Notes under the pieces: model-generated
Seen by the model: only the letters and a program-made list of their open reading frames with translations
What the model was told of the DNA's origin: nothing
The model's database searches: none
Shown: positions 210-56,407 of the stretch, piece by piece
Position numbering within the stretch: position 1 is the first letter of the stretch
Layout: each line of letters begins with the position of its first letter
Origin: a virus
Length of the DNA stretch: 64,000 nucleotides
Direction: 5' to 3' (one strand)
Virus record (IMG/VR): IMGVR_UViG_3300038829_000127
Span: 4,975-68,974 of that record
Program-made: the position numbers and the translations under genes

Positions 210-519
210 ACTTGAGCGCCTGGCCAACCACAATCCCAACAACTCGAGCACCACGTACCTCTTCCACTGTCCCGGCTGCCAGGCCCCGCACCCCTTTGAG
301 GTACCGCGGTGGATCTGGAACAGCAGCCTGACCGAACCGACGTTCATGCCGTCCCTGCTGGTCAACCGGCACGACCCACAGACGCGATGCCATTTGTTCA
401 TGGCCCGGGGGCAGATTCAGTTTCTCACGGACTGTCACCACAGCCTGGCCGGGCAGACGGTCCCCTGCCCGGATTGGCAGTCGTCTCTTCAGGCTGACAA
501 GCCGGAAGAGACGACCTAG
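175..519 (+). CDS. DUF6527-like Cys/His-rich protein
   Basis: FHCPGC..H...WIWN.S...PTF.PSLL...RCH.F...G.IQFL.DC.H.LAGQTV pattern recalled for this family; true start may be downstream. Confidence 0.7.
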   Translation: MSTARSSPVGIKLERLANHNPNNSSTTYLFHCPGCQAPHPFEVPRWIWNSSLTEPTFMPSLLVNRHDPQTRCHLFMARGQIQFLTDCHHSLAGQTVPCPDWQSSLQADKPEETT

Positions 520-3150: not shown

Positions 3151-4716
3151 TTGACAAAACTGGGGGTGCTGATGGCTGCCGCAAGGAAGAAAGACCCCGA
3201 GAGCCCCACAGGCTCCGCCAACATCTCCACACAGCACCCGCAGTATTCACAGCAGGCGGATGCCTGGGAAACGCTGCGCGACTGCTACGGCGGTGAGCGG
3301 GCGGTCAAGGCCGCAGGAACCCGCTACCTGCCGCTTACTCCAGGGCAGATGAAGTTCGGGGCGCCGGGCACCAACAGCAAGGGCATGAAAGCCTACGAGG
3401 CGTACAAGGTCCGTGCGGTCTTCCCGGGCCTCGTGCGCAAGGCCGTTGAATCTAACCTGGGCATCATGCACAGGAAGCCGGCCATAATTGAGGCTCCGCC
3501 CGCACTGGACGGTTTCATCGACCACTGCACCCAAGAGGGCGAGGACATTCAGGCCCTCCTCCGCAAGATCAACGAGCAGCAAATCCTACCCGGCAGGGTA
3601 GGATTTCTCCTCGACCTCCCCGCCGACACCAGCACCAAGCCCACCCCCTACATTGCCGTCTACGAAGCCGAGACGATCATCAACTGGGACACGGACATCG
3701 GCCCCGATGGCAAGCGGCGCCTGACGCTGGTGGTCCTGGCTGAGATGCGGCATGTGCGCACCGACCGGTTCAGTTGGGAGATCAAGCCTTTCTACCGGGT
3801 GCTGGAGATCAACTCAGACGGCAATTACCAGCAGACGCTGTATGACAACCAGACACAGGTCAATACGCTGGTCCCGCTGGTGCGGGGCGAACCGCTCAAG
3901 GAAATTCCCTTCTGCATCGCCAACACCAAAGACAACGCCCCGGACGTGGACACATCTCCGATTGAGGGGCTGGCAGCACTCTCACTGGCCATTTACCGTG
4001 GTGAGGCCGACCTGCGCCAGTCCCTCTTCATGTCCGGGCAGGACACGCTGGTGATCGAGGGTGGGGAACCGAACAAGGAGTACGGCACCGGGGCAGGCAC
4101 CATCCTCACACCATCCACGGGCAACAAGGTCTACTACGTGGGTGTCTCCACGGGCGGCCTGCAGGAGCAGCGGCACAATATCGAGGGTGACAAGCAGATT
4201 GCCCTGACTGAAAGTGCGCAGCTCTTTGACACGACCAGCCGGCAGAAAGAGTCCGGGGATGCGCTCCGCATCCGGGCTGCCGCCTCCACGGCCACGCTGC
4301 AGCAGATTGCACTGACCGGGGGTGCTTGCGTAACCCGTCTTCTCCGTATGGCAGCTATCTGGATGGGTGTTTCAGAAGACGAGTCACGCAAAATCCTCTG
4401 CAAGCCCAACCTGGACTTCACGGCTGAATCCGTCTCCGGCAAGGATCTGACCGACATGATGACGGCCAAGATGCTCGGTGCCCCGTTCTCGATGCAGGAG
4501 ATCCATGAGTACGGGCGCCGCGGCGGGGTGACGGACAAGACGTTTGAGGAGAGCAGCGACATGATCGAGATGGAGCCGCCGCTGCCTGGCCCTAGCCGTC
4601 TTCCGCCCAGCCAGGATGCAGGGCAGCCGAGCGGCGGGCCGCCGAAGAAGGCCCGCCAGTCGCCTTCGATCAAGAACGGTAGTGGCTTGAAGCCCAACAG
4701 GCCCGAGATGCAGTAA
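3151..4716 (+). CDS. portal protein (DUF4055-like)
   Basis: position after terL; HPQY...WETLRDCYGGERAVKAAGTRYLP and AY..Y..RAVF motifs. Confidence 0.88.
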   Translation: MTKLGVLMAAARKKDPESPTGSANISTQHPQYSQQADAWETLRDCYGGERAVKAAGTRYLPLTPGQMKFGAPGTNSKGMKAYEAYKVRAVFPGLVRKAVESNLGIMHRKPAIIEAPPALDGFIDHCTQEGEDIQALLRKINEQQILPGRVGFLLDLPADTSTKPTPYIAVYEAETIINWDTDIGPDGKRRLTLVVLAEMRHVRTDRFSWEIKPFYRVLEINSDGNYQQTLYDNQTQVNTLVPLVRGEPLKEIPFCIANTKDNAPDVDTSPIEGLAALSLAIYRGEADLRQSLFMSGQDTLVIEGGEPNKEYGTGAGTILTPSTGNKVYYVGVSTGGLQEQRHNIEGDKQIALTESAQLFDTTSRQKESGDALRIRAAASTATLQQIALTGGACVTRLLRMAAIWMGVSEDESRKILCKPNLDFTAESVSGKDLTDMMTAKMLGAPFSMQEIHEYGRRGGVTDKTFEESSDMIEMEPPLPGPSRLPPSQDAGQPSGGPPKKARQSPSIKNGSGLKPNRPEMQ

Positions 4717-5690
4717 TGGTTCAGTCCAACAAAACCCCGAACCAGCTTCTGCATGACGCGGTAGTGCGTCACCAAGTTTTCTTGCTGCGTTCCGCAGGAG
4801 TGCTGCAAAGAAAAGTTGTTGAGGCACTACAAGAGTCCGAAGCCAGGATCAAGCTCGCCATCGTCGAGCACCCACGTAGAAATCGCCTTGAGCTGATGGC
4901 CCTTTTGGCGGCAGTCACCACCCTGCGCCGACAGGCATGGCGCAAGGTGTCAAGGGAATGGTTGGCTTCTCTGGCGGAGTTAACCGCCAGGGAACCCATG
5001 TTCCTGACCGACACCCTCAACGAAGTCGCCCCGATCGTTATACAGATAACTCCGCTCAAGAATACGGATACTATCGTTACTCAGACCGCCGTCATGGGCA
5101 AGACAGCCCAGGAGTGGTTTGACGACGCCGAGGCGTCTGATATCGACCGGATCGAGACGAGTATCCGCTGGAGTGACGAGAAGGAAGACAGCGACCGTGT
5201 CCTGTTAGCCTTGCTCTTTGGCATGGGCGGGTTGGCTACGCAGACCGAGCGTGGTTTGAGCACCATTACCGCCACGGCCCTGATGGGTCTGACCTCCGCG
5301 GTGGCCATGGATTTCTTCGCGCTCAATACGCAGTTGGCTATGCGCTGGCTATTCGTAGCGGTGCTGGATAATCGGACGACACCACTGTGCCGTTCCCTGT
5401 CAGGCAAGACGTACTTGATTGGGAAAGGTCCTATTCCCCCACTTCACTGGTACTGCCGTTCCAGGGCGGTGCCTTTCGTGAACCTGAAGAACTGGGGCGG
5501 GGTGCCTCGGTCACCCAGCTATGCTGAATGGTTGGGGGGCCAGTCGGTCCAGTTCCAGGACGAGATCCTGGGCCCCACTCGTGGCAGGCTATTCCGATCG
5601 GGCGGAGTCACACTGGCCCGGTTCGTGGACTACAACACCGGGAAACAGTTCACGCTGGAAGAGTTGGCGAAGAGAGAGGGCCAGAGTTAG
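4716..5690 (+). CDS. head morphogenesis protein (SPP1 gp7/Mu gpF-like)
   Basis: AVLDNRTTPLCRSLSG...PPLHWYCRS motif. Confidence 0.88.
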   Translation: MVQSNKTPNQLLHDAVVRHQVFLLRSAGVLQRKVVEALQESEARIKLAIVEHPRRNRLELMALLAAVTTLRRQAWRKVSREWLASLAELTAREPMFLTDTLNEVAPIVIQITPLKNTDTIVTQTAVMGKTAQEWFDDAEASDIDRIETSIRWSDEKEDSDRVLLALLFGMGGLATQTERGLSTITATALMGLTSAVAMDFFALNTQLAMRWLFVAVLDNRTTPLCRSLSGKTYLIGKGPIPPLHWYCRSRAVPFVNLKNWGGVPRSPSYAEWLGGQSVQFQDEILGPTRGRLFRSGGVTLARFVDYNTGKQFTLEELAKREGQS

Positions 5691-7726: not shown

Positions 7727-8578
7727 ATGGCTGAGACGCCTACCTCTCGTCTGCGTCATGTGCGGCACTCGAGGCTCGCTCGATTGTCGCGCATGCGCAG
7801 GCTCAAGGGGTTTCTAACCCGTATGGTGACCAAGTTCACTGGCACGGGGGAGCAGTTTGCTGTGTCCTCTGTGGCGAAGGGGCTGGGGCTGAAGGCGGCT
7901 CGGGACTTAACCGTCACAACGGATCCGTCCGAAGGGGATACCGTCACAATCGACGGCAGGGTCTACACGTTCTGGACCAGTCTGACCGGTCATGCGGCGG
8001 ATGATGGGGCTGTGCTGATCGACACGGGTGCGTCGGCGGATAGTCTTTTGGCCGCTCTGACGCTGGACCCGGGGGGTTCGGGCACGCTCTACAGTGCAGG
8101 AACAACGGCCCATTCGACGGTGGATGCGACGGTCACAACGAACGTCATCACCATTCGTGCCAAGGCGTATGGGCGTGTGGGCAACAGCATCGCCATCGCC
8201 AAGAGTGGCACGAATCTGGCCTGGCAGGGTGGTGCCGAAACCCTTCTGGGGGGTGAAGATCCAGGCGTGATCTTCTCCGTGATCCCTGAGACGTTCGTCA
8301 CCGGTCTGGGCCCGTTTTCCCTGACTGGCACGGATGCGTCCTACGGCCTGGATCTGGATCTTCTCTACTACCTCCGGGTTGTGGACGCAGACAACATCAT
8401 GTTTGCCCTGTCTGCGGCTCAGGCCAGGGATGGGGATTGTCTGACGTACCCTGCCGAGGCGACCGGGGACTTCATCATCCAGCTTGGCGCAACGACAAAC
8501 GTAGCGATCTACGAGACGATGCGCAGAGGAATCGCCGCGGAACGTCTCGGGGTGGCCACCGATATCGACGCTCTCTAG
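7727..8578 (+). CDS. putative virion structural/decoration protein
   Basis: follows MCP; Thr/Gly-rich beta domain (GDTVTIDGRVYTF); Arg-rich N-terminus. Confidence 0.6.
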   Translation: MAETPTSRLRHVRHSRLARLSRMRRLKGFLTRMVTKFTGTGEQFAVSSVAKGLGLKAARDLTVTTDPSEGDTVTIDGRVYTFWTSLTGHAADDGAVLIDTGASADSLLAALTLDPGGSGTLYSAGTTAHSTVDATVTTNVITIRAKAYGRVGNSIAIAKSGTNLAWQGGAETLLGGEDPGVIFSVIPETFVTGLGPFSLTGTDASYGLDLDLLYYLRVVDADNIMFALSAAQARDGDCLTYPAEATGDFIIQLGATTNVAIYETMRRGIAAERLGVATDIDAL

Positions 8579-8590
8579 CAGGAGGACCAA

Positions 8591-9169
8591 GTGACCCCGA
8601 AGTCTTTGAAGGATGTACTTGAGGAACTGGACCAGAAGGACGATTCCAACTGGACGGCTGAAGGACTGCCGACCCTCGATGCGGTGTCCAAGAAAGTTGG
8701 CCGCACCGTGACGCGGAAGGAACTCAACGAAATCTCGCCCGGATTCGTCCGCAAGATGGATGCGAAGGGGGAGAAGTTCGAGCGTAAGGTGGCCGCGGCG
8801 CCGGCTGCCGTGAACGCCACTCCCGTTGATGAGCCCGTGCCGCCGACTCATCAGGATTCAGGGGAGACGGATCGGGATGCCGAAGCGGGTTCCACGGAGC
8901 AGATCATCGCGGGGCATGATGCAGGCATTGCTGAGGCGCAGAAGCTGGTGGACGACGCCAATGCGACCCTGGCTGAGCGAGTGGCGGCCCGGGACCGTGC
9001 CGTTCTGGCCAACGAGACGGCTCTCGCGGGGAAGCCAAAGCATGTGCAGCAGATGGAGAGCACTCTGGCGTTCATCGAGGCGGGTAAGCGTGACCGTGGT
9101 GCGACTTCGGCCAGGCTGGCTCCGGTGGACGAGGCCATGGCTCGTGTGGGTTCACGACCGACGCGCTAG
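8591..9169 (+). CDS. hypothetical protein of head operon
   Basis: GGAGG SD; LD..DD.NWT.EGLP.LDAV...VTRK motif. Confidence 0.7.
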   Translation: MTPKSLKDVLEELDQKDDSNWTAEGLPTLDAVSKKVGRTVTRKELNEISPGFVRKMDAKGEKFERKVAAAPAAVNATPVDEPVPPTHQDSGETDRDAEAGSTEQIIAGHDAGIAEAQKLVDDANATLAERVAARDRAVLANETALAGKPKHVQQMESTLAFIEAGKRDRGATSARLAPVDEAMARVGSRPTR

Positions 9170-39473: not shown

Positions 39474-39778
39474 AGTTGTCTCCGGGGCGCGTCTAGCGAA
39501 TCGGAGACAACATCCATATTGCAACGCTTCCACCACCACACGCTATGCCGTCCCGCTTCGATTTCAGGCACATGCGCCACGAGCCAATCGCCACGTTCCT
39601 TGCTGATCGTAGCGATGCGCCGAAAGCCATTGGCTCTGAAAAGTTTCCCATCTGCATCCGCCACCAGGTACCTGTCACGGAACCTGCCATGGTAAAAACC
39701 GACCGCGAATTGGTCCCCAGGATCCCCGTCCCTGTACTTTGTGGCCAGCACGTAGTCTCCGGGCTCGAGCGGTTTCAT
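39470..39778 (-). CDS. conserved hypothetical protein
   Basis: GDYVLATKY.DGDPGD...VGF motif. Confidence 0.65.
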   Translation of the reverse strand: MKPLEPGDYVLATKYRDGDPGDQFAVGFYHGRFRDRYLVADADGKLFRANGFRRIATISKERGDWLVAHVPEIEAGRHSVWWWKRCNMDVVSDSLDAPRRQL

Positions 39779-43845: not shown

Positions 43846-44744
43846 TGTGCCTCCATGTGGTTAGTCTCAGAAACTGACAACTCGGTGGCCCGAGTTATCA
43901 GTGGCCGAAACCACCGTGCCGGGGTCAACCGCCGATCCCCGCGGGCCCACTTGGCCGCGTACATCGTGTAGTCATGGTAAAGGGCGAGGGCGCGTTCAGC
44001 GTCCTCGGCCTTTACAAAGGACATCTCCCTGCGGTCAGCCTCAACCATCAGCGAGTGCAATGCGGGAATGAATCTCCGCTGCATGGTGATGCCGTTGTGT
44101 GGGCTAAAGCCCAGCACCTCGGCAATCGGCACAGAGACATTCGCCCAGGTCATCCGGTCGATTGCCGTTTCCCCGACCACATCCAGCGCCATCTCGTAGC
44201 CCAACGGACAACAGCGTGCCCGATGTATCCCTGTGGCCATGCGCTTCTGCACGGCAGCATGGGCTGTCTCGACATAGCTCGTGTTCAGCACGTCCGGTTC
44301 ATTGTCGAAGATCCAGCAAGCAGCCAGCAGGCCGTCTATTGGGGCGGCATGCTCAGATACCCGGGTGCTGGCCGTTGGGCTGAACAGGCGGTTGGCCTTC
44401 CCACACATACGGAGCACCCGGGCCACGTACCTTGCCCACTTGTCGAAGTGGTACGGCTCAAGCAGCACGGGGCGCAGGTGGGTTAGGAGGCTGAGACGGT
44501 TCACCAGGCGGCAGAGGGTCACCGCACGGGCCATGTGTCGTCTCCCCCGAAGAGGGGAGACGACTTGCTCTCGGATCCACTTCGTTGTGGGATCCAGTTC
44601 CCTGCGGGTGTTCGGGAAGTGGAGGTGGTTGAGCACCGGATCCTTCGACCAGGGCCACTCCTGCCCGGCTATTCGCCGGTCACGAATGGCCTGACGCTCG
44701 GCAACGAGCCAGAACAATTTGTCCAGGTCAATCCCGATAGCCAT
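43842..44744 (-). CDS. diverged 5-hmdU DNA kinase (aGPT-Pplase1) family protein
   Basis: FWLVAERQAI..RR.AG..WPWS.DPVL...HF.NTRRELD.TT.W N-terminus; GYEMALD and WAN C-terminal remnants. Confidence 0.75.
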   Translation of the reverse strand: MAIGIDLDKLFWLVAERQAIRDRRIAGQEWPWSKDPVLNHLHFPNTRRELDPTTKWIREQVVSPLRGRRHMARAVTLCRLVNRLSLLTHLRPVLLEPYHFDKWARYVARVLRMCGKANRLFSPTASTRVSEHAAPIDGLLAACWIFDNEPDVLNTSYVETAHAAVQKRMATGIHRARCCPLGYEMALDVVGETAIDRMTWANVSVPIAEVLGFSPHNGITMQRRFIPALHSLMVEADRREMSFVKAEDAERALALYHDYTMYAAKWARGDRRLTPARWFRPLITRATELSVSETNHMEAQ

Positions 44745-45325: not shown

Positions 45326-46059
45326 TCCTGCATGTACGTTTCATGCAGGAACGCATTGATGGCGGCAAGATCCGGCTCATCACGCAGGTTGCTTGTTCCC
45401 ATGGCCCGCTGCAGCGCCTGCTCCTGAGCCTCGATCATCTGCACCACGCGATCAAAGGTGATCTCACCTCGGCGTACCTGCATGAGCACTTCACGTTCAG
45501 CCGGCCGCATGGGCAGGCTCATCCGCCCTTCACCCACGATCTCAAGCCCCTGGTAGCCCAGACGGAGCGCGTGCATGGCGTACTTAGTATCGTAGCCATA
45601 CTGCTCGACCAGCTCGGGCCGCTTCACGCGCTTCTGCCCACGAACGCCCAGCAGCCGTTGCTTCTGGGCCAGCAGATAGCCCAGGAAGGCGTTGCCCGCT
45701 TTCTTTGAAACGATGGCCTTTCGCATCTGACGGAGTGCGTTTCCCCGGGCTGTCAGCACTGAGCAGTCCTGTGGCGGGACAAACAGCGGCATGAGGATTG
45801 TAGGATTGCCACCAGCCGCCAACCGCATCCATTTGCGCAGACCGTAGATCGTCAGGTCCAGATCCCCCGGGCCAGAGCGCACTCCCTCGGGCTGTGTCCG
45901 CTCCACGATGTGCTCACGGTACTGGAGCCCGGTCACAGCTTCTTTGGGCTCGATCATAATGCCCATTTCGTCCCGGTCGTCGGTGCCTTCAAGGGCCAGA
46001 CCGTGTACGGTGGAACCCACCGTGCAGCGGATGATCAGTTTGGCATCATCAGACTTCAT
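45301..46059 (-). CDS. Pol-beta superfamily nucleotidyltransferase (RlaP/YcgL-like)
   Basis: GSTVHGL....DDRDEMG (GS..DxD); GNPTIL..LF; YDTKYAMHALRL. Confidence 0.85.
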   Translation of the reverse strand: MKSDDAKLIIRCTVGSTVHGLALEGTDDRDEMGIMIEPKEAVTGLQYREHIVERTQPEGVRSGPGDLDLTIYGLRKWMRLAAGGNPTILMPLFVPPQDCSVLTARGNALRQMRKAIVSKKAGNAFLGYLLAQKQRLLGVRGQKRVKRPELVEQYGYDTKYAMHALRLGYQGLEIVGEGRMSLPMRPAEREVLMQVRRGEITFDRVVQMIEAQEQALQRAMGTSNLRDEPDLAAINAFLHETYMQEWGKVCPT

Positions 46060-46075
46060 TTACCGCTCTCCATTT

Positions 46076-47317
46076 CTATACGCCTCGGCGTACAACAGTG
46101 ACTCTTTCAACCGCTCTGGTAATCCCCGTATACAACCACCGCCGCGCATCGGCCCGGAAGCAAGCGGACTCGTCGAAGAGGACTACGGAATTGAACTGAC
46201 TTCCTTGTGCCTTATGGCAGGTGAGCGCGTATCCGTAGTCGAACTCCTCTGCGTCCTTGCGCTCGAACCACGGCAGGTCCAGTTCTCTGCCCTGGAAGTG
46301 GTGTGCGTGGGCGGTCACATTCAAGGTGGCCCCGTCCTCTCCGATCACATCCATCTCCACCCGATCGTCGTCTACACTGCCCACACGGTCCACCGTCCAC
46401 AGGCCGCCGTTCAGAAGGCCCAGTTCGTGGTTGTTCCGGAGGCAGACAACTTTATCCCCGCGTACAGGATAGATGTGCTCCACCTGTGGCATTGTGGCAT
46501 GAATGTCGTAGGATTTCCCCAGCAACTGCCGCATCCTTCGATTGCTTGCTCGCCGCGTGGCGTTTCGCCCCACGATGACCTGATCGCAAGCCAGCACTTC
46601 CTCCGGGCTGATGTCGTCCGTCACACAGGACTCGCCCGAGAACCAGCCGGTGTGGATGGACTCGCCCATGCGCACTCGTGTTGCGAGTGCGAGCACAGGA
46701 GAGTCCAGGGCATGGCGGTGGATCTCCGTCAGCATCACATCTGGCTTGGCATCGGTGAAGTAGCCACCGCCGTAGACCGGGGGGAGCTGGAACGGGTCAC
46801 CCAGCACAAGGACTTTTTTACCGAAGGACAGCACATCCCGCCCCAGCGGCTCATTGACCTGGCTCGCTTCGTCCAGCCCGATCAGGGCGGCGTTGGCCGC
46901 ATCGCTGCACGGGTTCAGCTTGAATGATGGCTGGCCCAGGCGTTTACGCTCCTCCGCGATCTCATCCTTCAGCCGGGCTACCTTGTGCCCGGTGCCGATG
47001 GCCGGGGAGCCTTCAATGTTGAAGAGTTGCCCCTCGAGTTCCAACAGCCGCAGCCGGGATTTCTCCTGCGACGTGTAGATCATAGAGTGAATCGTGCTGG
47101 CCCCCGTACAGCCCTTCTGGCGCAAGACGAGGGCCGCCTTGCCCGTGAACGCGCCGAACAGCACCAGGCCATCCACACCTTCGGCCAGATGCCGCATAAG
47201 GGTCGTCTTCCCAGTGCCCGCAAAGCCGAACAACCGAAACACCTGCGGCCCCGACTTATCCGCGATCCACGCCGCCACGGCTTTTAGCGCGGCTTCTTGC
47301 TGCGGGCTCCAGTTCAC
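46076..47317 (-). CDS. RecD/Dda-like SF1B DNA helicase
   Basis: GFAGTGKTT, DEASQV, GDPFQLPPV, YALTCHKAQGSQF, YTGITRA. Confidence 0.92.
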   Translation of the reverse strand: MNWSPQQEAALKAVAAWIADKSGPQVFRLFGFAGTGKTTLMRHLAEGVDGLVLFGAFTGKAALVLRQKGCTGASTIHSMIYTSQEKSRLRLLELEGQLFNIEGSPAIGTGHKVARLKDEIAEERKRLGQPSFKLNPCSDAANAALIGLDEASQVNEPLGRDVLSFGKKVLVLGDPFQLPPVYGGGYFTDAKPDVMLTEIHRHALDSPVLALATRVRMGESIHTGWFSGESCVTDDISPEEVLACDQVIVGRNATRRASNRRMRQLLGKSYDIHATMPQVEHIYPVRGDKVVCLRNNHELGLLNGGLWTVDRVGSVDDDRVEMDVIGEDGATLNVTAHAHHFQGRELDLPWFERKDAEEFDYGYALTCHKAQGSQFNSVVLFDESACFRADARRWLYTGITRAVERVTVVRRGV

Positions 47318-47550
47318 TCCCCATCCTCCACAGTAAGCACTCCAAACGCCACAGCCACCGCAATGATCTCCTCGCGCAACGTACCCTCGGCCACGAAGTG
47401 CCCCTCATCTGTGTTCACATCCACATCGCCATCGGACATGAACAAGATGCCATGCACGGCAATGCGTCGGCCCTTGTGGTTGGCCACCGTTGTCTCTATG
47501 CACTCTTGGAGATCCTTGGGCCAGGGGCGGTTGAGGTAGAAGCCGGTCAT
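47314..47550 (-). CDS. hypothetical protein
   Basis: ORF track; ATGA coupling. Confidence 0.55.
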   Translation of the reverse strand: MTGFYLNRPWPKDLQECIETTVANHKGRRIAVHGILFMSDGDVDVNTDEGHFVAEGTLREEIIAVAVAFGVLTVEDGE

Positions 47551-47753
47551 CGGCCCATCACCGCTTTTGCCAACAAGAAAAGGAACACCAGCGGAAATGC
47601 GACCAGCGCCAGCGCAACCCCACCCCAGAACGGCGACAGCACCCACCACCAGGACCAGTTGATGACGTGGGCCAGTTTCAGGCCGATGAAGAGGAGGCCG
47701 AGGAGGCTTAGGAAGCCTACTCCGTTGCTGGTTTGCCCGCTTTTGGTGGACAT
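47547..47753 (-). CDS. small membrane protein
   Basis: LFIGLKL.HVI.WSWWWVLSPFW, a motif common in phage membrane proteins. Confidence 0.75.
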   Translation of the reverse strand: MSTKSGQTSNGVGFLSLLGLLFIGLKLAHVINWSWWWVLSPFWGGVALALVAFPLVFLFLLAKAVMGR

Positions 47754-47775
47754 TAGAACTCCGTTCCTAAACCGA

Positions 47776-48262
47776 ACCCACCGCAGGATCCCAACCCCGC
47801 CCTGGAGCCTTGGCTGAGTCCTGCGTGTGGGTCAGTAGTGTCCGCTGCGACCGCAGGGAGTAGTGGACACTACCCCTTTCAGTCGCCCAAGTAGAGCAGA
47901 ACACCCCTCCCCCACCCCCGTACCGGCTGCGTCGTGTCCCGGTACGGGGGCACGGTAGGGTCGGGGTGTTCATTGTTTCAACCGGCCCAGCGGGGACGGT
48001 TGAAACAATCCTTGTCAAACGCTCCAGAGCCACCGAAGGCGGGCCGCGCTACCCCGGGCAGGGGGCATCACCCGTTATGCTTTGTGGCCCTGGAGCCTGT
48101 TGTCTCCGCAGGCCCAAAGGGACGGCGGAGACAACACAAGAACGAATGTTGGCCCGCGGCGATTCATGCCCACCGGATGGAATCGAACCATCTAGGGGAG
48201 CTACCCCAACCGCATCCACCGGCCGGCGAATAGGCACAAAGTTCGTCCGCCGCGGGCCAAAC
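47776..48262 (-). ncRNA. non-coding island of seven consecutive hairpins (candidate structured RNA or DNA cruciform array)
   Basis: stems at 47776-47832, 47835-47873, 47899-47971, 47972-48009, 48021-48096, 48098-48136, 48148-48262; no credible ORF. Confidence 0.6.
48148..48262 (-). ncRNA. tRNA-like cloverleaf enclosed in a 13-bp stem
   Basis: T arm GATGG-TTCGATT-CCATC, GGGG-TAGCT-CCCC arm, CCG-GTGGATG-CGG arm, closing TTGGCCCGCGGCG/CGCCGCGGGCCAA. Confidence 0.55.
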
Positions 48263-48270
48263 GTCTGACT

Positions 48271-49185
48271 TTAGAAAGGCGCCTCTTCCTCGGGCAGATC
48301 ACCCGACGCACCACCCGCCCCACCCGAGTCACCCTGCCCCGCCCCCGACAGATCCACCTTCACCAGCCCGCCCTTGATCTGGGCGATGAAATCCTTGGCC
48401 TGGGCCAGCAGCCCAGCTTCGGTGGCCGGAGAAATCAGCGAGGCCGCCCAGTTCTCCTTGAACGGCTGGATCAGCCAATTCTTAGAGATCTGGCCAACCT
48501 TGTTCTTGTGGTCGGTGGTCTTCAGCCGGGCCCGGTTGGCGAAGATCGGGGGACGGCCCTTCAGCAGCTCCATGGACGTGTTCCACTGGCGCCACGGGCC
48601 GATGCCTGTACTCTTGAAGGCAATCATGGCGGGACCAGCGATCTCGTTGCCCTCGTCGTTCAGGATGAAGGCGTAGAGGTACACGGTTTCCACCACTTCG
48701 ACTTCGACTTCGCCCTTGGCGTTCTTGACCAGGGGGAGGGCGCCTTTGGGCCGTCCACCGACCGCTTCCAGCAGCCGCAGGACGACTGGGTTATCACTCT
48801 CCATCGGCGGGTGATCCTCGGGGAACCCGCCGCCCTTGGCCCGGGGGATCCAGGGCACCCAGAGACGGTGCTTCATCACCGGCTGGATCACCACGCCCTT
48901 GTCGGCGGGCCACAGTTCGCCCGTGACCGTGTTGTAGAGCATCCCGATCTCGGCGCCCGGAACCTTCGTCTCACCCTTCACCTGCGGGGACAGATCCTGC
49001 AGGATGGTGAGGAACGGGATCATCTTGTCCCGGGTGTCGTTCGACTCGAAACCGGCGCCGCTGTCCTCGCCATAATCGTTGACCGCCGCAAGAGCGGTCG
49101 TGTTCGTTGTGGCCGGCAACTGCTCCTGTGCCACCTCTTCAGTCACAGGCTTCGCGCCCGGTGCGACTCGTGCCCTGCTCGCCAT
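48271..49185 (-). CDS. probable single-stranded DNA-binding protein
   Basis: GFE...D..IPFL.ILQ.LSPQV; Gly/acidic tail ending EEEAPF. Confidence 0.7.
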   Translation of the reverse strand: MASRARVAPGAKPVTEEVAQEQLPATTNTTALAAVNDYGEDSGAGFESNDTRDKMIPFLTILQDLSPQVKGETKVPGAEIGMLYNTVTGELWPADKGVVIQPVMKHRLWVPWIPRAKGGGFPEDHPPMESDNPVVLRLLEAVGGRPKGALPLVKNAKGEVEVEVVETVYLYAFILNDEGNEIAGPAMIAFKSTGIGPWRQWNTSMELLKGRPPIFANRARLKTTDHKNKVGQISKNWLIQPFKENWAASLISPATEAGLLAQAKDFIAQIKGGLVKVDLSGAGQGDSGGAGGASGDLPEEEAPF

Positions 49186-49249
49186 TGTCCATTCCTCCGT
49201 CGTTGTTATTTGCCGCGGGCTGTTTAACGTCCCCCGGGGCTGTGGACGG

Positions 49250-49286
49250 TGTTGACTCCGGCGCCTGAAAGGTGGCGGAGTCAACA
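49250..49286. promoter_or_regulatory. inverted repeat with the same arms as 1158-1190
   Basis: TGTTGACTCC-N17-GGAGTCAACA upstream of the SSB gene. Confidence 0.5.
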
Positions 49287-49308
49287 AATAGCGCAGGGTG
49301 CCAGTGCG

Positions 49309-49524
49309 TTACGCTGGCGGCTCAGGTGCGACCTGATCGGTTCCTCTCCCGCAACCCTGCAAGATATAACTGTACCCTCTCGGATACATGACTTTCTGCA
49401 GTCGGTAGATGACATCCCCAGCAGCAGACGCCACTAGCTCCAACTCGGCTATTTCCAGATACCGGAAGGCTTCTTCGTCCGTATCCACCGTGATCGTCCC
49501 GTCAACCTTTACGTGGATGGCCAT
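49309..49524 (-). CDS. hypothetical protein
   Basis: ORF track. Confidence 0.45.
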   Translation of the reverse strand: MAIHVKVDGTITVDTDEEAFRYLEIAELELVASAAGDVIYRLQKVMYPRGYSYILQGCGRGTDQVAPEPPA

Positions 49525-49672
49525 TTGGCCCTGTAAGCCCGGAACACGGGCGGTACTACCCGATCGTGTTTCCGGTGCCAGAGGTAGCATCTCAGATCAC
49601 GCCAGGCAAGGATGCCCGCGTTGACGAGAGATATGCACAGGGCAGCACTGCCCAAGATCAGGGGCAGCAGTG

Positions 49673-49906
49673 TCATTCGTCCTCCGCCGTCCGCTCCCGC
49701 CAGTAAGCCATCACGGTCAGCAGAAAGGTATCCTGGTAGCGTGATAACCGCTTGCAGGTTTCATCGGCACAAGCCCTCAGTGCCTGATGGCCCAGCACAA
49801 CGGTGACGACAGCCAGTGGTATCCAGAACCACGTATGCCCCTGGATCTCCATGCCCACCAGGACAGCCCCAAAATACTGCAGGGACACCCATTGCCAGGC
49901 TTTCAT
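49673..49906 (-). CDS. small membrane protein
   Basis: two hydrophobic segments; ATGA coupling. Confidence 0.5.
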   Translation of the reverse strand: MKAWQWVSLQYFGAVLVGMEIQGHTWFWIPLAVVTVVLGHQALRACADETCKRLSRYQDTFLLTVMAYWRERTAEDE

Positions 49907-50023
49907 GCTTGGCCTCTCCGCCTCCGGAGCATGGGCTCCAGCCAGAAGTACCACGTTGCATTGCCACCGAGGGCGCCCAGAAAGGCGCATATTGCGTAGG
50001 ACCAGGCGGTGTGCTCAGACACG

Positions 50024-51639: not shown

Positions 51640-53130
51640 CTATATCCATTCCTTCAGTGTATCCCCCGTAATCGCGGCGGATACATCGCGCTTGTCTCTC
51701 AGATCCTGCACAATTCCCTCGTCCACCGTATCCCTCCCGATCAAATCGACGTAGTTGCAATGGTGCTTCTGTCCGGGCTCCTTGATGCGCTCGGCGGCCT
51801 GGCTGCGCTGAACGGCTTTCTGTGTGTGGCTGAAGAAGACCAGGTTGCGTGCCGTGGCCAGGTTGTTGCCCTCGGAACCCTTGGCGTAGGTCGTGACGAA
51901 GTAGCGGGCCTCGCCAGCCCGGAAGGCGGCGATGTTGGCAGCACCCTCTTCGGCGGTCATCTTGCCGCCGATGAAGGACACAGCCGCCTTGCCCAGCAAG
52001 GCCATCACCCGGGCGATGTCCAGGCGGTACTGGCAGAAGATCACCACCTGCTCGCCGGCCATGTCTTCCAGCGTCTCAAGCAGCAGGGCCAGCCGCGGGT
52101 CTGTTCTGTCCGGTTCAATGGTCGAGCGCGGCTCCCCCGAGTCATCGGGGATATAGCCCGAAGCAATCTGCTGCAGCCGCCCGTGGCGAACGATCGAGAG
52201 GGCAGCCGAGATGAAAACCCCGGACTCAATCTCGATCTCGTACTCGGTCTTCAACTGGTTGTAGAGCCGCGCCTGCTTGGGCGTCATCTCAAAGAACCGG
52301 GTCTGGTACAGGGCTGGCGGCAGATGCAGCACCTCGTCCTGCGTCACCCGGTGGCTGATCGTGGCCAGGAGCTGCTTCAGCTCGGGGATGTTCCGGTAGT
52401 CGTGGAACACCGGGTAGTTGGGCACGTAGCCCATGGTCTGGATGCACTGCTCCTGCGTCAGAAAGATCCCGAAGTGTGTCTTGAAGGCGGAGAAGCTGTG
52501 CATGTGGTGCCGCTTCCAAAAGCCTGGATCCAGAAACTTGATCTGGGAGTAGACATCGAACGGGCCCTCGGAAACCGGCGTGCCGGTCAGGATGCGGCGG
52601 TAGGGGGCGTACTTGCCGCTGGCTATGATGGAGATGGTGCGCTTGGCTCCGGGTGTCTTGATGTGGTGGGCTTCGTCCACCGCATAAAGACACGTTCTCT
52701 TTTTGAGGAACGCCCAGGCATCGGCCTTTCCCTGGCCCGACATGAAGGACTGAAAAGACATCGCCATGACCGAGAAACCGGCGTGGTTGACCAGCTCTTT
52801 GATCAGTGGGCGATACCGCTTGTTGCCCGACTGGGCCGTGCTGTACGCGAGAGTGCGGGCCGGGATGGAAAGCCACTTGGGGATCTGCTCGAGGATCCAG
52901 GTGTGCTGGACCCCAGGTGGGGTAACCAAGAGTAGGGCGTCGATACTGCCGCGCTGGTAAAGATGCGCGGCAGTATCGAGCACTACTCTTGACTTCCCGC
53001 ACCGCTGCTCCCAGAAGATGCCGTAGGCTTCTTTGTCCCGGGTCGCTTCGAAGCCGGCGCGTTGGTGGTCGAAGGGCGCGGGGGCACCTTGCTTGTACTG
53101 GTAGTCGGCTGCGATGGGGAGGGTGGTCAC
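51640..53130 (-). CDS. SNF2-family helicase
   Basis: EQRCGKS, DEAH, LTGTP, QIASG, GSEGNNL, RSQAAER. Confidence 0.9.
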   Translation of the reverse strand: MTTLPIAADYQYKQGAPAPFDHQRAGFEATRDKEAYGIFWEQRCGKSRVVLDTAAHLYQRGSIDALLLVTPPGVQHTWILEQIPKWLSIPARTLAYSTAQSGNKRYRPLIKELVNHAGFSVMAMSFQSFMSGQGKADAWAFLKKRTCLYAVDEAHHIKTPGAKRTISIIASGKYAPYRRILTGTPVSEGPFDVYSQIKFLDPGFWKRHHMHSFSAFKTHFGIFLTQEQCIQTMGYVPNYPVFHDYRNIPELKQLLATISHRVTQDEVLHLPPALYQTRFFEMTPKQARLYNQLKTEYEIEIESGVFISAALSIVRHGRLQQIASGYIPDDSGEPRSTIEPDRTDPRLALLLETLEDMAGEQVVIFCQYRLDIARVMALLGKAAVSFIGGKMTAEEGAANIAAFRAGEARYFVTTYAKGSEGNNLATARNLVFFSHTQKAVQRSQAAERIKEPGQKHHCNYVDLIGRDTVDEGIVQDLRDKRDVSAAITGDTLKEWI

Positions 53131-53133
53131 GGC

Positions 53134-54360
53134 TCAGTCCTTGTACGGATCTTCCACATCGTCACCCGCCATCGCAACTCCGATCGGCGTCAACGTATGC
53201 AGAACCTTGATGGTGTCACCGTGGGCCTCGAGCACTTCCGGCAGCCGCTTGTAGCAGTGCGGCGACTCATCCACACCGGCTCCGCGCAGCTCCACATTCA
53301 TGGGCCGGATCCAGTTGTCCATCATCTCACGGGTCACGGCGCCACCGGTCTGCGACACAACGACTCGGCGGCCCTCGGCATTGCGCCCGAACTTCCGCTT
53401 CCCGGCCGCCTTGGTGCGGCTCATTACCCGACCGGCCCCGTGAACCGTAGAGTAGAAGGCTGTCTGGGAGTCGATGGACTCCACGCCCTCAATGATGACG
53501 GACACGTCGCCCATGGATCCGCCCACGAACCCACGCTGCCCGGGAAAGGCAGGTGTGGCGCCCTTGCGGACGACCCAGACCATCTCCCCCAGATGCTCCT
53601 CCAGCCAGGCGAAGTTGTGGTGGTTGTGCACCCGATCCAAGACGGGAGCCCCGATCAGGCTGGCCACGCGGTCGCATACCCAATCACGACCGGCGTAGGC
53701 GTACTGACCGGCCAGGTCCATGCAAGTCAGGTAGTTCTGGCCCAGTTCACTGTTCACAGGCAAGAGCACCGGGTCCACGTCGATACCATCCTTGCCGCCA
53801 CCCGCCTCGATAAAGTAGGTAGCGATCTTGTGGCCCAGGCCACGGCTGCCGAAGTGGACGCCGCACCAGACACGTTCCTGCTCGTCCACGAACAGGTCCA
53901 CGTAATGGTTGCCGGAGCCAATGGTCCCGAGCTGGTTCTGCGCCATGCGCTTCAACGGGGCCGCAGCCCGCAGCTTCCAGGCCGGATGACCGTCAGCCTC
54001 AAAGAGCGGGTGCTCAACCGACTCGTTGTTGTTCAGGCCGACACCGAACGAAAGCGTCTTCCAGATATCGTCCATGATCGTCTTGATATTGGCCCGGACC
54101 TCGGCAGCCGAAACATCCAGCAGCACCGCACAATTGCCACAGGCGATGTCGAAGCCAACGCCGTTCGGGCTGATCTTGTCCTTGTAGACCAGCACGCCAC
54201 CCACCGGGGCGGCGTACCCCTGATGGTTGTCGGCCATCAGGGCACAAGCATCCGCCGTCTCGAAGCAGTGGAGGATCTGGCGTTCGGCACCTTCGTCGGG
54301 CACACCGAAGACCGGGATGCTGTCTATTCCGTCCTTCTGGAGCCAGGTGAGGCGGCTCAT
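53134..54360 (-). CDS. rtcB: RtcB RNA ligase
   Basis: MADNHQGY, GFDIACG, GSGNHY, HFGSRG, HNHHN, RKGAT, HGAGRVMSR, DESPHCYK. Confidence 0.96.
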   Translation of the reverse strand: MSRLTWLQKDGIDSIPVFGVPDEGAERQILHCFETADACALMADNHQGYAAPVGGVLVYKDKISPNGVGFDIACGNCAVLLDVSAAEVRANIKTIMDDIWKTLSFGVGLNNNESVEHPLFEADGHPAWKLRAAAPLKRMAQNQLGTIGSGNHYVDLFVDEQERVWCGVHFGSRGLGHKIATYFIEAGGGKDGIDVDPVLLPVNSELGQNYLTCMDLAGQYAYAGRDWVCDRVASLIGAPVLDRVHNHHNFAWLEEHLGEMVWVVRKGATPAFPGQRGFVGGSMGDVSVIIEGVESIDSQTAFYSTVHGAGRVMSRTKAAGKRKFGRNAEGRRVVVSQTGGAVTREMMDNWIRPMNVELRGAGVDESPHCYKRLPEVLEAHGDTIKVLHTLTPIGVAMAGDDVEDPYKD

Positions 54361-55757
54361 CGAGCCGCCTCACTCTCATTCTCTTCCAGCGCAATCCACT
54401 CCACCAACCGCTCCGACCAGCCTGAGATGCGCGACCAACCGTTGCTCAGTTCCAGCGCGGGCTTGTAGCCGGCGACGTTGACGATATAGCCCTTGGCCTG
54501 CCGCACCTTGATGCCCGAGTCGGCCGCCTGTTCGTCAGTGACCACAATCGTCCGAGCGGGCTCGGGCAGGGTTTCTGCCATCTTGGCCAGCGCCTGCCCC
54601 AGATAGGTGCCGCCGTTCGGCTGCGAGTTCCACAGCGCCTCGATCAGCGGCAGCCCACGGTAGGCCGGAGCCTCCACCAGCTTCGTGGAGAACGTGAAGA
54701 TCCGGCAGTCCTCGCAGATTTCCCGCAGGAGGATGGCCAGGGCACCAGCCGCCTGGTAGCGGCGGAGCGTGCTCTTGGCCGACAGCGCATCGGACATGGA
54801 GCCCGACACGTCCACCAGCAGGTACGTCATGCCCGGGAGCCTGGGCGCCTCCTCGACGGCCAACAGCATGGCCTGCGAGAGAGCATCGACCATGGACGGG
54901 GCGGCCAGCGCGGCGGAGACGAATCGGAAGGGGAGGGCTTTGGACTTCCGGGCACCGGCCAACAGGGCAGCGTTGATCAGCGCCCGATCCACACCCGCCC
55001 CCTCCATGTTCCGCAGATTCATCAGAAGGGCCATGTACCCGAGCTTGTTTTCCGTGAGCAGCCGGGTGAAGGCTTCCTTCTTGTCAGCGCCGCCCGACAG
55101 GGCCACTTCCCATGTGTCCGGGGTGGCCAGGGTGCCGTTGACGATCTTCTCGTAAAGCAGTTCCCGCTCGGTCGGCTCGTACGGCCGGACAGGGCTTTTC
55201 TTCCGATCGGCCCGCACCCAATCAAAGTTGGCCGGCTTGGCATGGCACACGAAGAGAGCGTCACGCAGCTTGACCGCACCGTCCCGGTTCCACTTGGCCA
55301 ACTCGTGCTCACTGAACTTGGCGAATGCCAAGCTCAGGCCCTTCTTCACCTGGGCAGACACCGGGCACTTGCCGTCCTTCCAGTAGATGGACAGGAACTC
55401 GGCCAGTTCATCGGCACGCTGGATCGTCTCGCGCAAAGTGCGGGAGACGATGCCCGGGTCAGCGGTGCGGCCCGGATGCCGGGCCAGTTGCCGCACCAGG
55501 AACAGCGAGACGTGCCGCAGTTTCATGGCAGTGCGTGTGCTCACAGCCAACTCCGCCAACTGCTGCGGAGTTACCTGCAAGCACAGTTCCTCGATCCGCG
55601 CTGCGATCTCGGAGCCCGATTCGTAGAACGTGTTCTCGAACAGCATGCAGGTGGACACGGCCCGGGTCAGTTCCTGGAGGGGCGTCTGGTGCCGATCGGC
55701 CCGGCCCCCTTCATGGGTGACAACGGGCGGGAGCTTGGTGCAGGTGTTGGTCTTCAT
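54357..55757 (-). CDS. rsr: Ro60 autoantigen homologue (TROVE + vWA)
   Basis: FENTFYES, RADELAEFL, LAKW, LRDAL...H.KP, ALLMNLRNM, LPFRF, VDVSGSM, GGT, VTDEQ; ATGA overlap with rtcB. Confidence 0.95.
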   Translation of the reverse strand: MKTNTCTKLPPVVTHEGGRADRHQTPLQELTRAVSTCMLFENTFYESGSEIAARIEELCLQVTPQQLAELAVSTRTAMKLRHVSLFLVRQLARHPGRTADPGIVSRTLRETIQRADELAEFLSIYWKDGKCPVSAQVKKGLSLAFAKFSEHELAKWNRDGAVKLRDALFVCHAKPANFDWVRADRKKSPVRPYEPTERELLYEKIVNGTLATPDTWEVALSGGADKKEAFTRLLTENKLGYMALLMNLRNMEGAGVDRALINAALLAGARKSKALPFRFVSAALAAPSMVDALSQAMLLAVEEAPRLPGMTYLLVDVSGSMSDALSAKSTLRRYQAAGALAILLREICEDCRIFTFSTKLVEAPAYRGLPLIEALWNSQPNGGTYLGQALAKMAETLPEPARTIVVTDEQAADSGIKVRQAKGYIVNVAGYKPALELSNGWSRISGWSERLVEWIALEENESEAAR

Positions 55758-55776
55758 GGGGTTCTCCGTTTCTAGG

Positions 55777-55814
55777 TTCACTCATTCGACTGCACCAGCA
55801 GGCGAATGAGTGAA
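55777..55814 (-). promoter_or_regulatory. leader hairpin before the rsr ribosome-binding site
   Basis: TTCACTCATTCG-CCTGCTGGTGCAGT-CGAATGAGTGAA. Confidence 0.6.
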
Positions 55815-56378: not shown

Positions 56379-56407
56379 AGTATACCACCCCGCTCGGGGC
56401 GGGTCAA
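56379..56407 (-). promoter_or_regulatory. sigma70-type promoter for the Y RNA-rsr-rtcB operon
   Basis: TTGACC-17 nt-TATACT on the - strand. Confidence 0.8.

Follow-up and report, generated by a model that had tools for sequence, protein, structure and literature searches.

A folded non-coding gap between the gp34-like gene and the helicase block

The virus record IMGVR_UViG_3300038829_000127 is a 70.3-kb IMG/VR entry that was judged complete. We analysed 64,000 nt of it (positions 4,975 to 68,974, called the window in this text) and focused on a non-coding gap that is packed with seven hairpins, one of which carries a transfer RNA (tRNA)-like cloverleaf. The two DNA runs that contain this stretch come from one groundwater sample/metagenome and cover it at about 4x depth, with no variants or joints. 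The local genes all run on the minus strand, which corrects the initial annotation of this DNA. In that direction an SNF2 helicase gene, a Pam3 gp33-like gene and a Pam3_gp34-like gene precede the gap. The last of these (48271..49185, minus strand; Pfam PF23977, E 2.7e-41; product of 304 aa) had been taken for a single-stranded DNA-binding protein (SSB) gene and is annotated as SSB-like in some relatives; its stop codon adjoins the gap. On the far side lie the gene of a 68-aa membrane protein (phrog_1374; 47547..47753, minus strand), which is the first of the helicase block, a Dda-like helicase gene (46076-47317, minus strand) and the genes for an RlaP-type nucleotidyltransferase, a 5-hydroxymethyldeoxyuridine (5-hmdU) kinase homologue and DNA polymerase A.

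The gap is 517 nt long (47754-48270) and extends from the gp34-like stop codon (48271) to the next ATG (47753), in good agreement with the non-coding island of about 490 nt that had been noticed before. The open reading frames (ORFs) within it lack a coding signature: their G+C content at third codon positions is 0.52-0.64, compared with 0.72-0.84 for the real neighbouring genes, and a Pfam search returned no match. On the minus strand, the gap folds with -291 kcal/mol, while shuffled sequences reach -227 +/- 6 kcal/mol (z = -10.6); on the plus strand the value is -258 kcal/mol (z = -7.8). All seven predicted stems are present, and each of the seven elements is individually significant (minus-strand z from -2.9 to -6.7). 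Per nucleotide, its folding energy of -0.52 to -0.55 kcal/mol is lower than that of any other crude non-coding gap in this genome (-0.21 to -0.48), and the structure is indeed exceptional. The window contains 27 perfect inverted repeats of at least 10 bp, compared with 2-9 in shuffles, and four of the 27 fall inside the gap. Read 5' to 3' on the sense strand, the elements, named by letters here, follow each other in the order T, H2, M, H1, B, S6 and S7, then come the ribosome-binding site (RBS) AGGAACGGAG and the ATG of the 68-aa gene (together 47751..47768, minus strand). In the fold of the whole region, this RBS is predicted to pair with 48137-48146 in a long-range helix.

Searches with the sequence of the gap were largely negative. 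An Rfam search, which had been suggested as a check, gave nothing over the region at gathering thresholds, and at E <= 10 only microRNA-like hairpin noise, tRNA-Sec (24.5 bits) and CRISPR-DR15 (19 bits). The gap matches nothing among 50,697 cultured phages at the DNA level and, within its own genome, only itself; 11-13-mers common to the gap and the rest of the genome occur at chance level, with the exception of H2. No promoter-like site was found in 46000-50000. Between 38 and 57.5 kb, only one promoter of the sigma-70 type was found on the minus strand; it is located at 56407, upstream of the gap, which fits one long transcript. Matches in a wastewater RNA run are restricted to conserved coding parts of other organisms.

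Hairpin B and the same junction in related phages

Hairpin B (47899..47971, minus strand) has 73 nt in three helices of 9, 4 and 13 bp and is followed by CUGCUCUACUU. It is the one element common to the nearest relative, an ENA metagenome contig (L004) whose gp34 is 85% identical and whose gap at this junction measures 146 nt. Alignment, nhmmer and BLAST agree that the contig shares only B of the seven hairpins. In the inner stem of the two copies, four pairs have changed on one side only, which makes them G-U on the sense strand, and one change is compensatory; the copy in the relative folds better in the sense (-42.5 kcal/mol, z -4.0) than in the antisense direction (-30.5 kcal/mol, z -2.1). 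Since the pairing survives via G-U changes that are valid on the sense strand only, B appears to be an RNA element read in the direction of the genes. The initial annotation had likewise named G-U pairs as a sign of RNA and strict Watson-Crick pairing as a sign of DNA. Pattern scans of IMG/VR revealed no further relatives with hairpin B.

About 105 more distant gp34 loci were collected besides this contig. The gap after gp34 spans 45-110 nt in most of about 90 loci, and 45-214 nt is the overall range in the relatives, whose spacers comprise one to three hairpins. No more than 130 nt from the gp34 stop codon there is a strong hairpin (median folding energy -27 kcal/mol, 73 non-redundant loci), in many cases with a CTTTTC-type tail. 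The cultured carriers of gp34 are Mesyanzhinovviridae-type siphoviruses (M6, PaMx11, Ab18 and Bhz59) and the cyanophage Pam3, with gp34 proteins 29-39% identical to that of the window. Each of their gaps has at least one hairpin and up to several; the final one is terminator-like with a pyrimidine- or U-rich tail, and the RBS of the next gene comes after it. The spacer in the window resembles these gp34-Dda spacers in its junction, its strand, its strong hairpins and its place just upstream of the next RBS, and the hairpin in the spacer of the nearest relative is directly homologous to B. It differs by its length and by its seven hairpins, which include a cloverleaf and private palindromes. 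Furthermore, the U tract of B is weaker than that of M6, which like Bhz59 has a textbook terminator at the homologous position.

The short hairpin or terminator spacers of the relatives suggest that the ancestral role of this junction was that of a terminator or attenuator spacer, of which the gap in the window is a five-fold enlarged version. B is likely the ancestral terminator or a 3' stabiliser. The idea of a self-contained, conserved cassette is not supported, as the nearest relative retains a single one of the seven hairpins and the relatives have a short hairpin/terminator spacer in its place. At least five of the seven hairpins have no counterpart in related phages, B being conserved. 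The statement that the stems lack U tails is roughly true, apart from weak, mixed U/C-rich tracts after hairpin B and after the closing stem of T, both of which are G+C-rich.

The hairpins S7, S6 and M

S7 (47771..47836, minus strand) is a 66-nt hairpin just upstream of the RBS. It folds with -41.8 kcal/mol on the minus strand (z -5.6) and with -27.7 kcal/mol on the plus strand (z -2.6), and these fold predictions support the view that S7, like B, behaves as sense-strand RNA. The adjoining hairpin region S6 (47835..47886, minus strand) can adopt two mutually exclusive folds (minus strand -24.1 kcal/mol, z -2.9; plus strand -27.7 kcal/mol, z -4.3). M (48021..48096, minus strand) is a long irregular hairpin of 76 nt (z -3.4 on the minus and -2.8 on the plus strand) with a basal helix of 13 bp on the minus strand that includes one G-U pair. 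An alignment with MAFFT was suggestive of a tandem duplication of a unit made of an H hairpin and a long hairpin, but M and B resemble each other no better than shuffled sequences do (z -0.5), and the duplication was rejected. Paralogy among the hairpins of the gap is limited to H1 and H2. The description of the stems as mutually unrelated thus fails for this pair.

H1, H2 and a private family of palindromes

H1 (47972..48009, minus strand; z -5.7) and H2 (48098..48136, minus strand; z -6.7) are perfect hairpins of 13 and 12 bp, respectively, which both carry a CCC/GGG cap. Their alignment scores 7.3 standard deviations (SD) above shuffles. Four stem pairs are fully compensated while the cap is unchanged, which indicates that the hairpin shape has been maintained.

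The stem base of H2, GTYGNYTC/GARNCRAC, is found in seven perfect hairpins of the genome, where 0.005 would be expected. Six of these lie in the window (480-515, 1159-1189, 39475-39511, 44537-44564, 48099-48135 and 49251-49285) and one just to its left (genome positions 4235-4270); most are at gene junctions, and their loops are unrelated. The longest gp34-like ORF starts at 49287 with a TTG, and the recorded product of 304 aa implies the ATG at 49185; given this start, the copy at 49251-49285 is intergenic and not coding. No member was found in 500 kb of the relatives' loci, including 11 kb of the nearest relative, and IMG/VR pattern scans gave one unrelated match only. The seven-palindrome family is therefore private to this phage genome among the sequences searched. 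All of its pairs are Watson-Crick pairs, with Watson-Crick covariation across the seven copies, and hence RNA and DNA cannot be told apart for this family. The distance between the half-sites varies from 12 to 21 nt, which favours a hairpin over a dimeric site on duplex DNA.

One member is part of an arrangement at 1003-1190, in which a real tRNA-Thr gene (1003-1079) overlaps an ORF end; after it come a textbook terminator, which has nine T residues in a row, and then the palindrome. The phage is thus able to build canonical U-tailed terminators elsewhere in its genome.

Short stem-loops that are repeated at gene junctions are known from other genomes. According to Arbiol et al. (2010, PMC2839356), T4-type promoter-early stem-loops (PeSLs) are located at gene junctions, mark hyperplastic regions and act as terminators. 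The family found here resembles bacterial repetitive extragenic palindromic (REP) elements and PeSLs in being made of dispersed palindromes, that is, short stem-loops repeated at the gene junctions of one genome. It differs in that it has only seven copies, shares 8 bp of stem base with unrelated loops and is absent from all relatives examined. By eye, no -10 element could be recognised at the right spacing at the palindromes, as would be needed for the promoter half of a PeSL, and no Y1 transposase is present in the genome.

H1 was also considered as a mimic of a CRISPR repeat, but its match to CRISPR-DR15 reaches 19.2 bits, whereas the gathering score is 36. In a scan of 185,579 genomes, at least 120 sites had the ends of H1; all were single, with no arrays among the matches listed, and H1 as a mimic of such a repeat is not supported. 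It resembles the solitary repeat units that act as RNA anti-CRISPRs (Camara-Wilpert et al. 2023, PMC10651486) in being a solitary intergenic phage hairpin of 32-38 nt with the ends GTTTCAAC...GTTGAAAC. The likeness to CRISPR-DR15, however, is weak and below threshold, and the paralogue H2 does not have repeat-like ends.

The tRNA-like element T

T (48149..48260, minus strand) consists of a tRNA-like element on a rod of 21 bp (helices of 8 and 13 bp with a bulge ACGAAC) and is followed by a U-rich tract. The cloverleaf core comprises about 57-60 nt (48172-48228). Its acceptor-like stem has 5 bp, its D-like arm 4 bp and the loop GUGGAUG, and its middle arm 4 bp and a loop of 5 nt; a T-arm completes it. 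The T-arm (48176-48192, minus strand), GAUGG-UUCGAUU-CCAUC, has the canonical 5-bp stem and 7-nt UUCRANN loop. When this arm is forced, the fold reaches -60.3 kcal/mol as opposed to a minimum free energy of -61.3 kcal/mol, so that it costs only about 1 kcal/mol. The tRNA-like cloverleaf of the initial annotation is supported. The T-loop motif GGTTCRAWYCC occurs twice in the 64 kb, where 0.32 would be expected, namely in tRNA-Thr and on the sense strand of T.

T is, however, a mimic and not a decoding tRNA. It has neither the 5-bp anticodon stem with a 7-nt loop nor CCA, and its acceptor-like stem runs on into the 21-bp rod instead of an NCCA end. Among the Rfam tRNA models, the best match is tRNA-Sec with 24.5 bits (E 0.028), compared with a gathering score of 47. 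At default settings, ARAGORN called only tRNA-Thr and not T; only with relaxed settings (-ps80) did it offer a reading of T, which is Ser(GGA)-like but poor and contains two G.G mismatches. An origin from an attachment site (attP) or a tRNA 3' fragment was considered and rejected, as the exact 22-mer of T-arm and 3' strand is absent from IMG/VR and from the 185,579 genomes and no integrase or resolvase was found in the genome.

The phage also encodes Ro60 (54357-55781) on the strand of the gap, with T 6.1 kb downstream of it, and RtcB. This suggests a comparison with YrlA-type Y RNAs (RF02553), which have a permuted tRNA-like domain made of a T arm, a closed acceptor-like stem-loop and a D arm, with the stem equivalent to the anticodon stem leading toward the Ro60 site (Chen et al. 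2014, PMC4201824). Like these RNAs, T combines a T-arm with a D-like arm, lacks both a decoding anticodon loop and CCA, and has its ends closed by a long stem; a bulge near its 5' end resembles GNCGAA. The contact motif with Rsr proposed for Y RNAs is GNCGAAN0-1G (PMC4201824); the rod has its bulge in the 5' strand, G-ACGAAC-U, where GNCGAA is present and the closing G is missing, and the chance of this in 112 nt is roughly 0.1 by our estimate. On the other hand, the arms of T stand in natural order (D-like, middle, T-arm) and not in the permuted one. T had no match to RF02553 at E <= 10, whereas a control unit from the Y-RNA array of this phage scored 25.2 bits. The docking sequences GGCGUAG ... 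UGAUCCG that are common to the five Y RNAs of the phage are, by eye, absent from T. Moreover, nearly all of the best YrlA matches lie within 4 kb of rsr (PMC4201824), a range that T exceeds.

A second mini-cloverleaf and searches for further members

A similar cloverleaf of about 60 nt was found on a metagenome contig (Ga0209456_10081980, L106; 1360-1419), where it starts 13 nt past the stop codon of a gp34 that is only 29% identical to that of the window, and is followed by UUUUGUUU. The arm layout is that of the T core, and 11 of the 13 nt of the D-like arm are identical. A model of the T core scores this element with 14.9 bits, which corresponds to E 0.68 in a search of 616 kb and to 0.0055 in 5 kb around both loci. 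In the model-fitted alignment of the two, 97% of the cells pair and four pairs are compensatory, as opposed to 36-51% and 0-1 in slid controls. This covariation, drawn from two sequences only, is suggestive. The folding energy of the second cloverleaf is no better than that of shuffles (z 0.2).

Three models of T (R1, R2 and R3) gave no members after gp34 beyond this one in 81 relatives or in four full related genomes, and none in the loci of Ro60 phages (11 loci with R1 and R2, eight with R3). The next-best matches of the two-sequence model are T-arm RNAs that adjoin Ro60 genes.

In another relative (L028, IMGVR_UViG_3300004088_000006; 3389-3451), the hairpin after gp34 encloses a lone 6-bp T-arm with the loop UUCAAAU. 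Its closing stem is a perfect 12 bp (13 with a terminal G-U), and in two sister phages (L020 and L076) the same leader sequence goes with a plain hairpin. Neither this T-arm hairpin nor that of Ga0209456_10081980 matched a tRNA family of Rfam at E <= 1. In four Ro60 phages (L238, L244, L245 and L247), the Ro60 gene lies amid arrays of 5-11 tRNAs within 10 kb, and several T-arm motifs that are not called as tRNAs are situated just upstream of Ro60. In one of them (L244), Ro60 adjoins a permuted transfer-messenger RNA gene (8374-8785).

It is possible, though we consider it unlikely, that T represents an undescribed class of phage tRNA mimics. Such a class would be defined by an anticodon-less mini-cloverleaf of about 60 nt directly 3' of a gp34-like gene, whose arms, in the natural tRNA order, include a D-like arm CCG-NNGGAUG-CGG, a third arm that is stunted and a T-arm. 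It would have been kept in two phages whose gp34 proteins are 29% identical, and it would be released as a partner of Ro60, RtcB or RlaP, or as a decoy for tRNA-recognising host enzymes or defence nucleases.

Interpretation of the gap

We propose that the gap is a region of RNA-level punctuation for which an ancestral terminator hairpin was the starting point, and in which the long stems and the tRNA-like element serve as processing sites and stability barriers; we would put the probability of this at about even. The proposal starts from what is observed, namely a structured and non-coding gap at this position, a hairpin B that is conserved and keeps its pairing on the sense strand, and the paralogous pair H1 and H2; from these we infer transcription, termination and every cleavage step. 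Action as RNA is favoured by the pairing of B, by the strand preference of S7 and by the orientation of the T-arm. The placement of tRNA-Thr between a stop codon and a terminator was also counted in favour of this proposal.

According to this model, the gap would be a spacer between cistrons that has been enlarged and that works as RNA of the gene-sense (minus) strand, within a long transcription unit running leftward. The core hairpin B would be the counterpart of the terminator-like hairpin that many relatives have between the gp34-like gene and the Dda-helicase block, and would probably attenuate transcription and block 3'-to-5' exonucleases. The additions of this lineage would be grouped around B: T right after the stop codon, the palindrome copies H1 and H2, M, and S6 and S7 before the next RBS. 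T may offer a site for tRNA-processing enzymes, for example RNase P. The long stems could be targets of double-strand-specific RNases and barriers to exonucleases, and S7 might protect the 5' end of the downstream message.

Punctuation and processing systems of this general kind include mitochondrial tRNA punctuation, the early RNase III sites of T7 and the stable RNAs of the T4 tRNA cluster. In tRNA punctuation and in RNase P/RNase III processing, too, a tRNA-shaped or long double-stranded element without a U tail stands between cistrons, placed so that cleavage would part the upstream and downstream messages. The gap differs from them in that the 5-bp acceptor-like stem of T continues into the rod without a free NCCA, and in that cleavage here is presumed.

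Several observations weigh against this proposal. Efficient termination at B would demand a promoter for the essential replication genes downstream, and none was recognised. The tail after B is mixed U/C with 5 U in 11 nt, which is a weak U tract, and a scan with consensus terminators gave no site inside the gap. As most of the hairpins are missing from the nearest relative, they may be dispensable. S6 is the sole element that folds better on the plus strand. The helices of H1, of H2 and of the stem that closes T consist of Watson-Crick pairs throughout, without any G-U, and fold equally well on either strand; they would fit a role as DNA as well. No RNA run was found to contain the stretch. 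Finally, the minus strand has an excess of 15 G-U pairs (10.9 +/- 4.2 in shuffles) and an excess stability of -33 kcal/mol (-22.5 +/- 7.1 in shuffles). This bias is mostly due to base composition, about 1-1.5 SD remaining beyond it, and was therefore not used as main evidence for RNA.

T, and perhaps M, H1 and H2, may instead be excised as stable small RNAs, with T as an anticodon-less tRNA mimic that works with Ro60, Y RNAs and RtcB (and RlaP) or soaks up tRNA-recognising host enzymes or defence nucleases. This idea, which we hold to be of low probability, does not exclude punctuation, as the two are mutually compatible. The canonical T-arm, the GG in the D-like loop, the ends closed on a long stem and the missing anticodon loop and CCA follow the general logic of tRNA-mimicking Y RNAs (Chen et al. 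2014, PMC4201824), and the bulge GACGAAC comes close to the proposed contact motif. Ro60, the Y-RNA array and RtcB lie about 6 kb upstream on the same strand; the distant Ga0209456_10081980 has its mini-cloverleaf in the same place, with a near-identical D-like arm and four compensatory pairs, and the T-arm RNAs beside Ro60 genes come next in the search with both sequences. The match on the distant contig, however, convinces only with a positional prior, and the T models remained without hits in the four full related genomes and in the eleven loci of Ro60 phages. T is also absent from the nearest relative, which retains RtcB, and the differences from YrlA RNAs in Rfam score, arm order, docking sequences and distance to rsr all speak against the idea.

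It is also conceivable, but doubtful, that most of the extra sequence is evolutionary debris of low function, collected at a tolerant site beside B as the one hairpin of importance, with T as a decayed tRNA gene and H1 and H2 as copies of a self-propagating or easily generated palindrome. This would explain why most of the hairpins are missing from the nearest relative, and true tRNA genes do occur near the junction in other relatives (L025 has one for tRNA-Arg just upstream of gp34, and L063 and L072 each have one for tRNA-Met downstream). The spread of the H2 stem base over seven perfect hairpins with unrelated loops in this genome only would fit as well, and so would the perfect Watson-Crick stems without wobble, as expected of young inverted duplications. 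Free decay, however, would hardly leave an intact T-arm, a fully paired 13-bp closing stem and compensated helices shared with a distant phage, nor four fully compensated pairs and a kept cap in H1 and H2. Furthermore, the genome encodes no transposase that could spread palindromes (no Y1_Tnp, reverse transcriptase or integrase); RNase III is not encoded either, and links of the gap to a retron, an IS200-like element or a phage RNase III were rejected. A role of the palindromes as DNA seems very improbable to us, be it as a cruciform or hairpin replication origin, which had been suggested initially, as a priming site or as binding sites of phage proteins. The gap does lie between the gp34-like gene, whose counterparts carry an SSB-like annotation in some relatives, and the helicase and polymerase genes; perfect Watson-Crick palindromes of 12-13 bp, which fold equally on both strands, make up H1, H2, the stem that closes T and the inner stem of B, and the seven GTYGNYTC copies show Watson-Crick covariation only. 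An origin should nevertheless be conserved, yet most of the hairpins are missing from the nearest relative, and the one that is conserved keeps its pairing on the sense strand only. There are no iterons (the direct repeats are short and have two copies only), an AT-rich tract for unwinding is lacking in this region with a GC content of 0.64, the cumulative GC skew passes straight through the site without an extremum, and half-sites 12 to 21 nt apart are unsuited to a dimeric double-strand binder. A replication origin at the gap is thus disfavoured.

If the gap does act as RNA, the boundary of a phage operon would have expanded from a single terminator hairpin to a processing hub of several hairpins, through duplication and through the capture of palindromic modules and of one that resembles a tRNA. 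The phage already spends genes on RNA care with Ro60, five Y RNAs, RtcB and an RlaP-type nucleotidyltransferase; another tRNA mimic of different build beside them would then widen what is known of tRNA mimicry in the conflict between phage and host, and the mini-cloverleaf is the part most worth following. The seven private palindromes offer a small, clean case for the origin and spread of such elements in a virus without a transposase. If the extra elements are debris, the finding would be an ordinary one, namely an unusually large terminator spacer.

Other perfect hairpins upstream of the gap

Three further perfect hairpins were noticed in the genes that precede the gap. One of 12 bp (54347-54373, minus strand) is situated at the Ro60/RtcB junction with the start codon of RtcB in its 3-nt loop region, and it may serve translational coupling or masking. 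A second one of 12 bp (55777-55814) spans the listed GTG start of Ro60 (55781), with a GGAG-type RBS just downstream of the hairpin. The third, with 15 bp (52940-52979), lies within the SNF2 helicase ORF.

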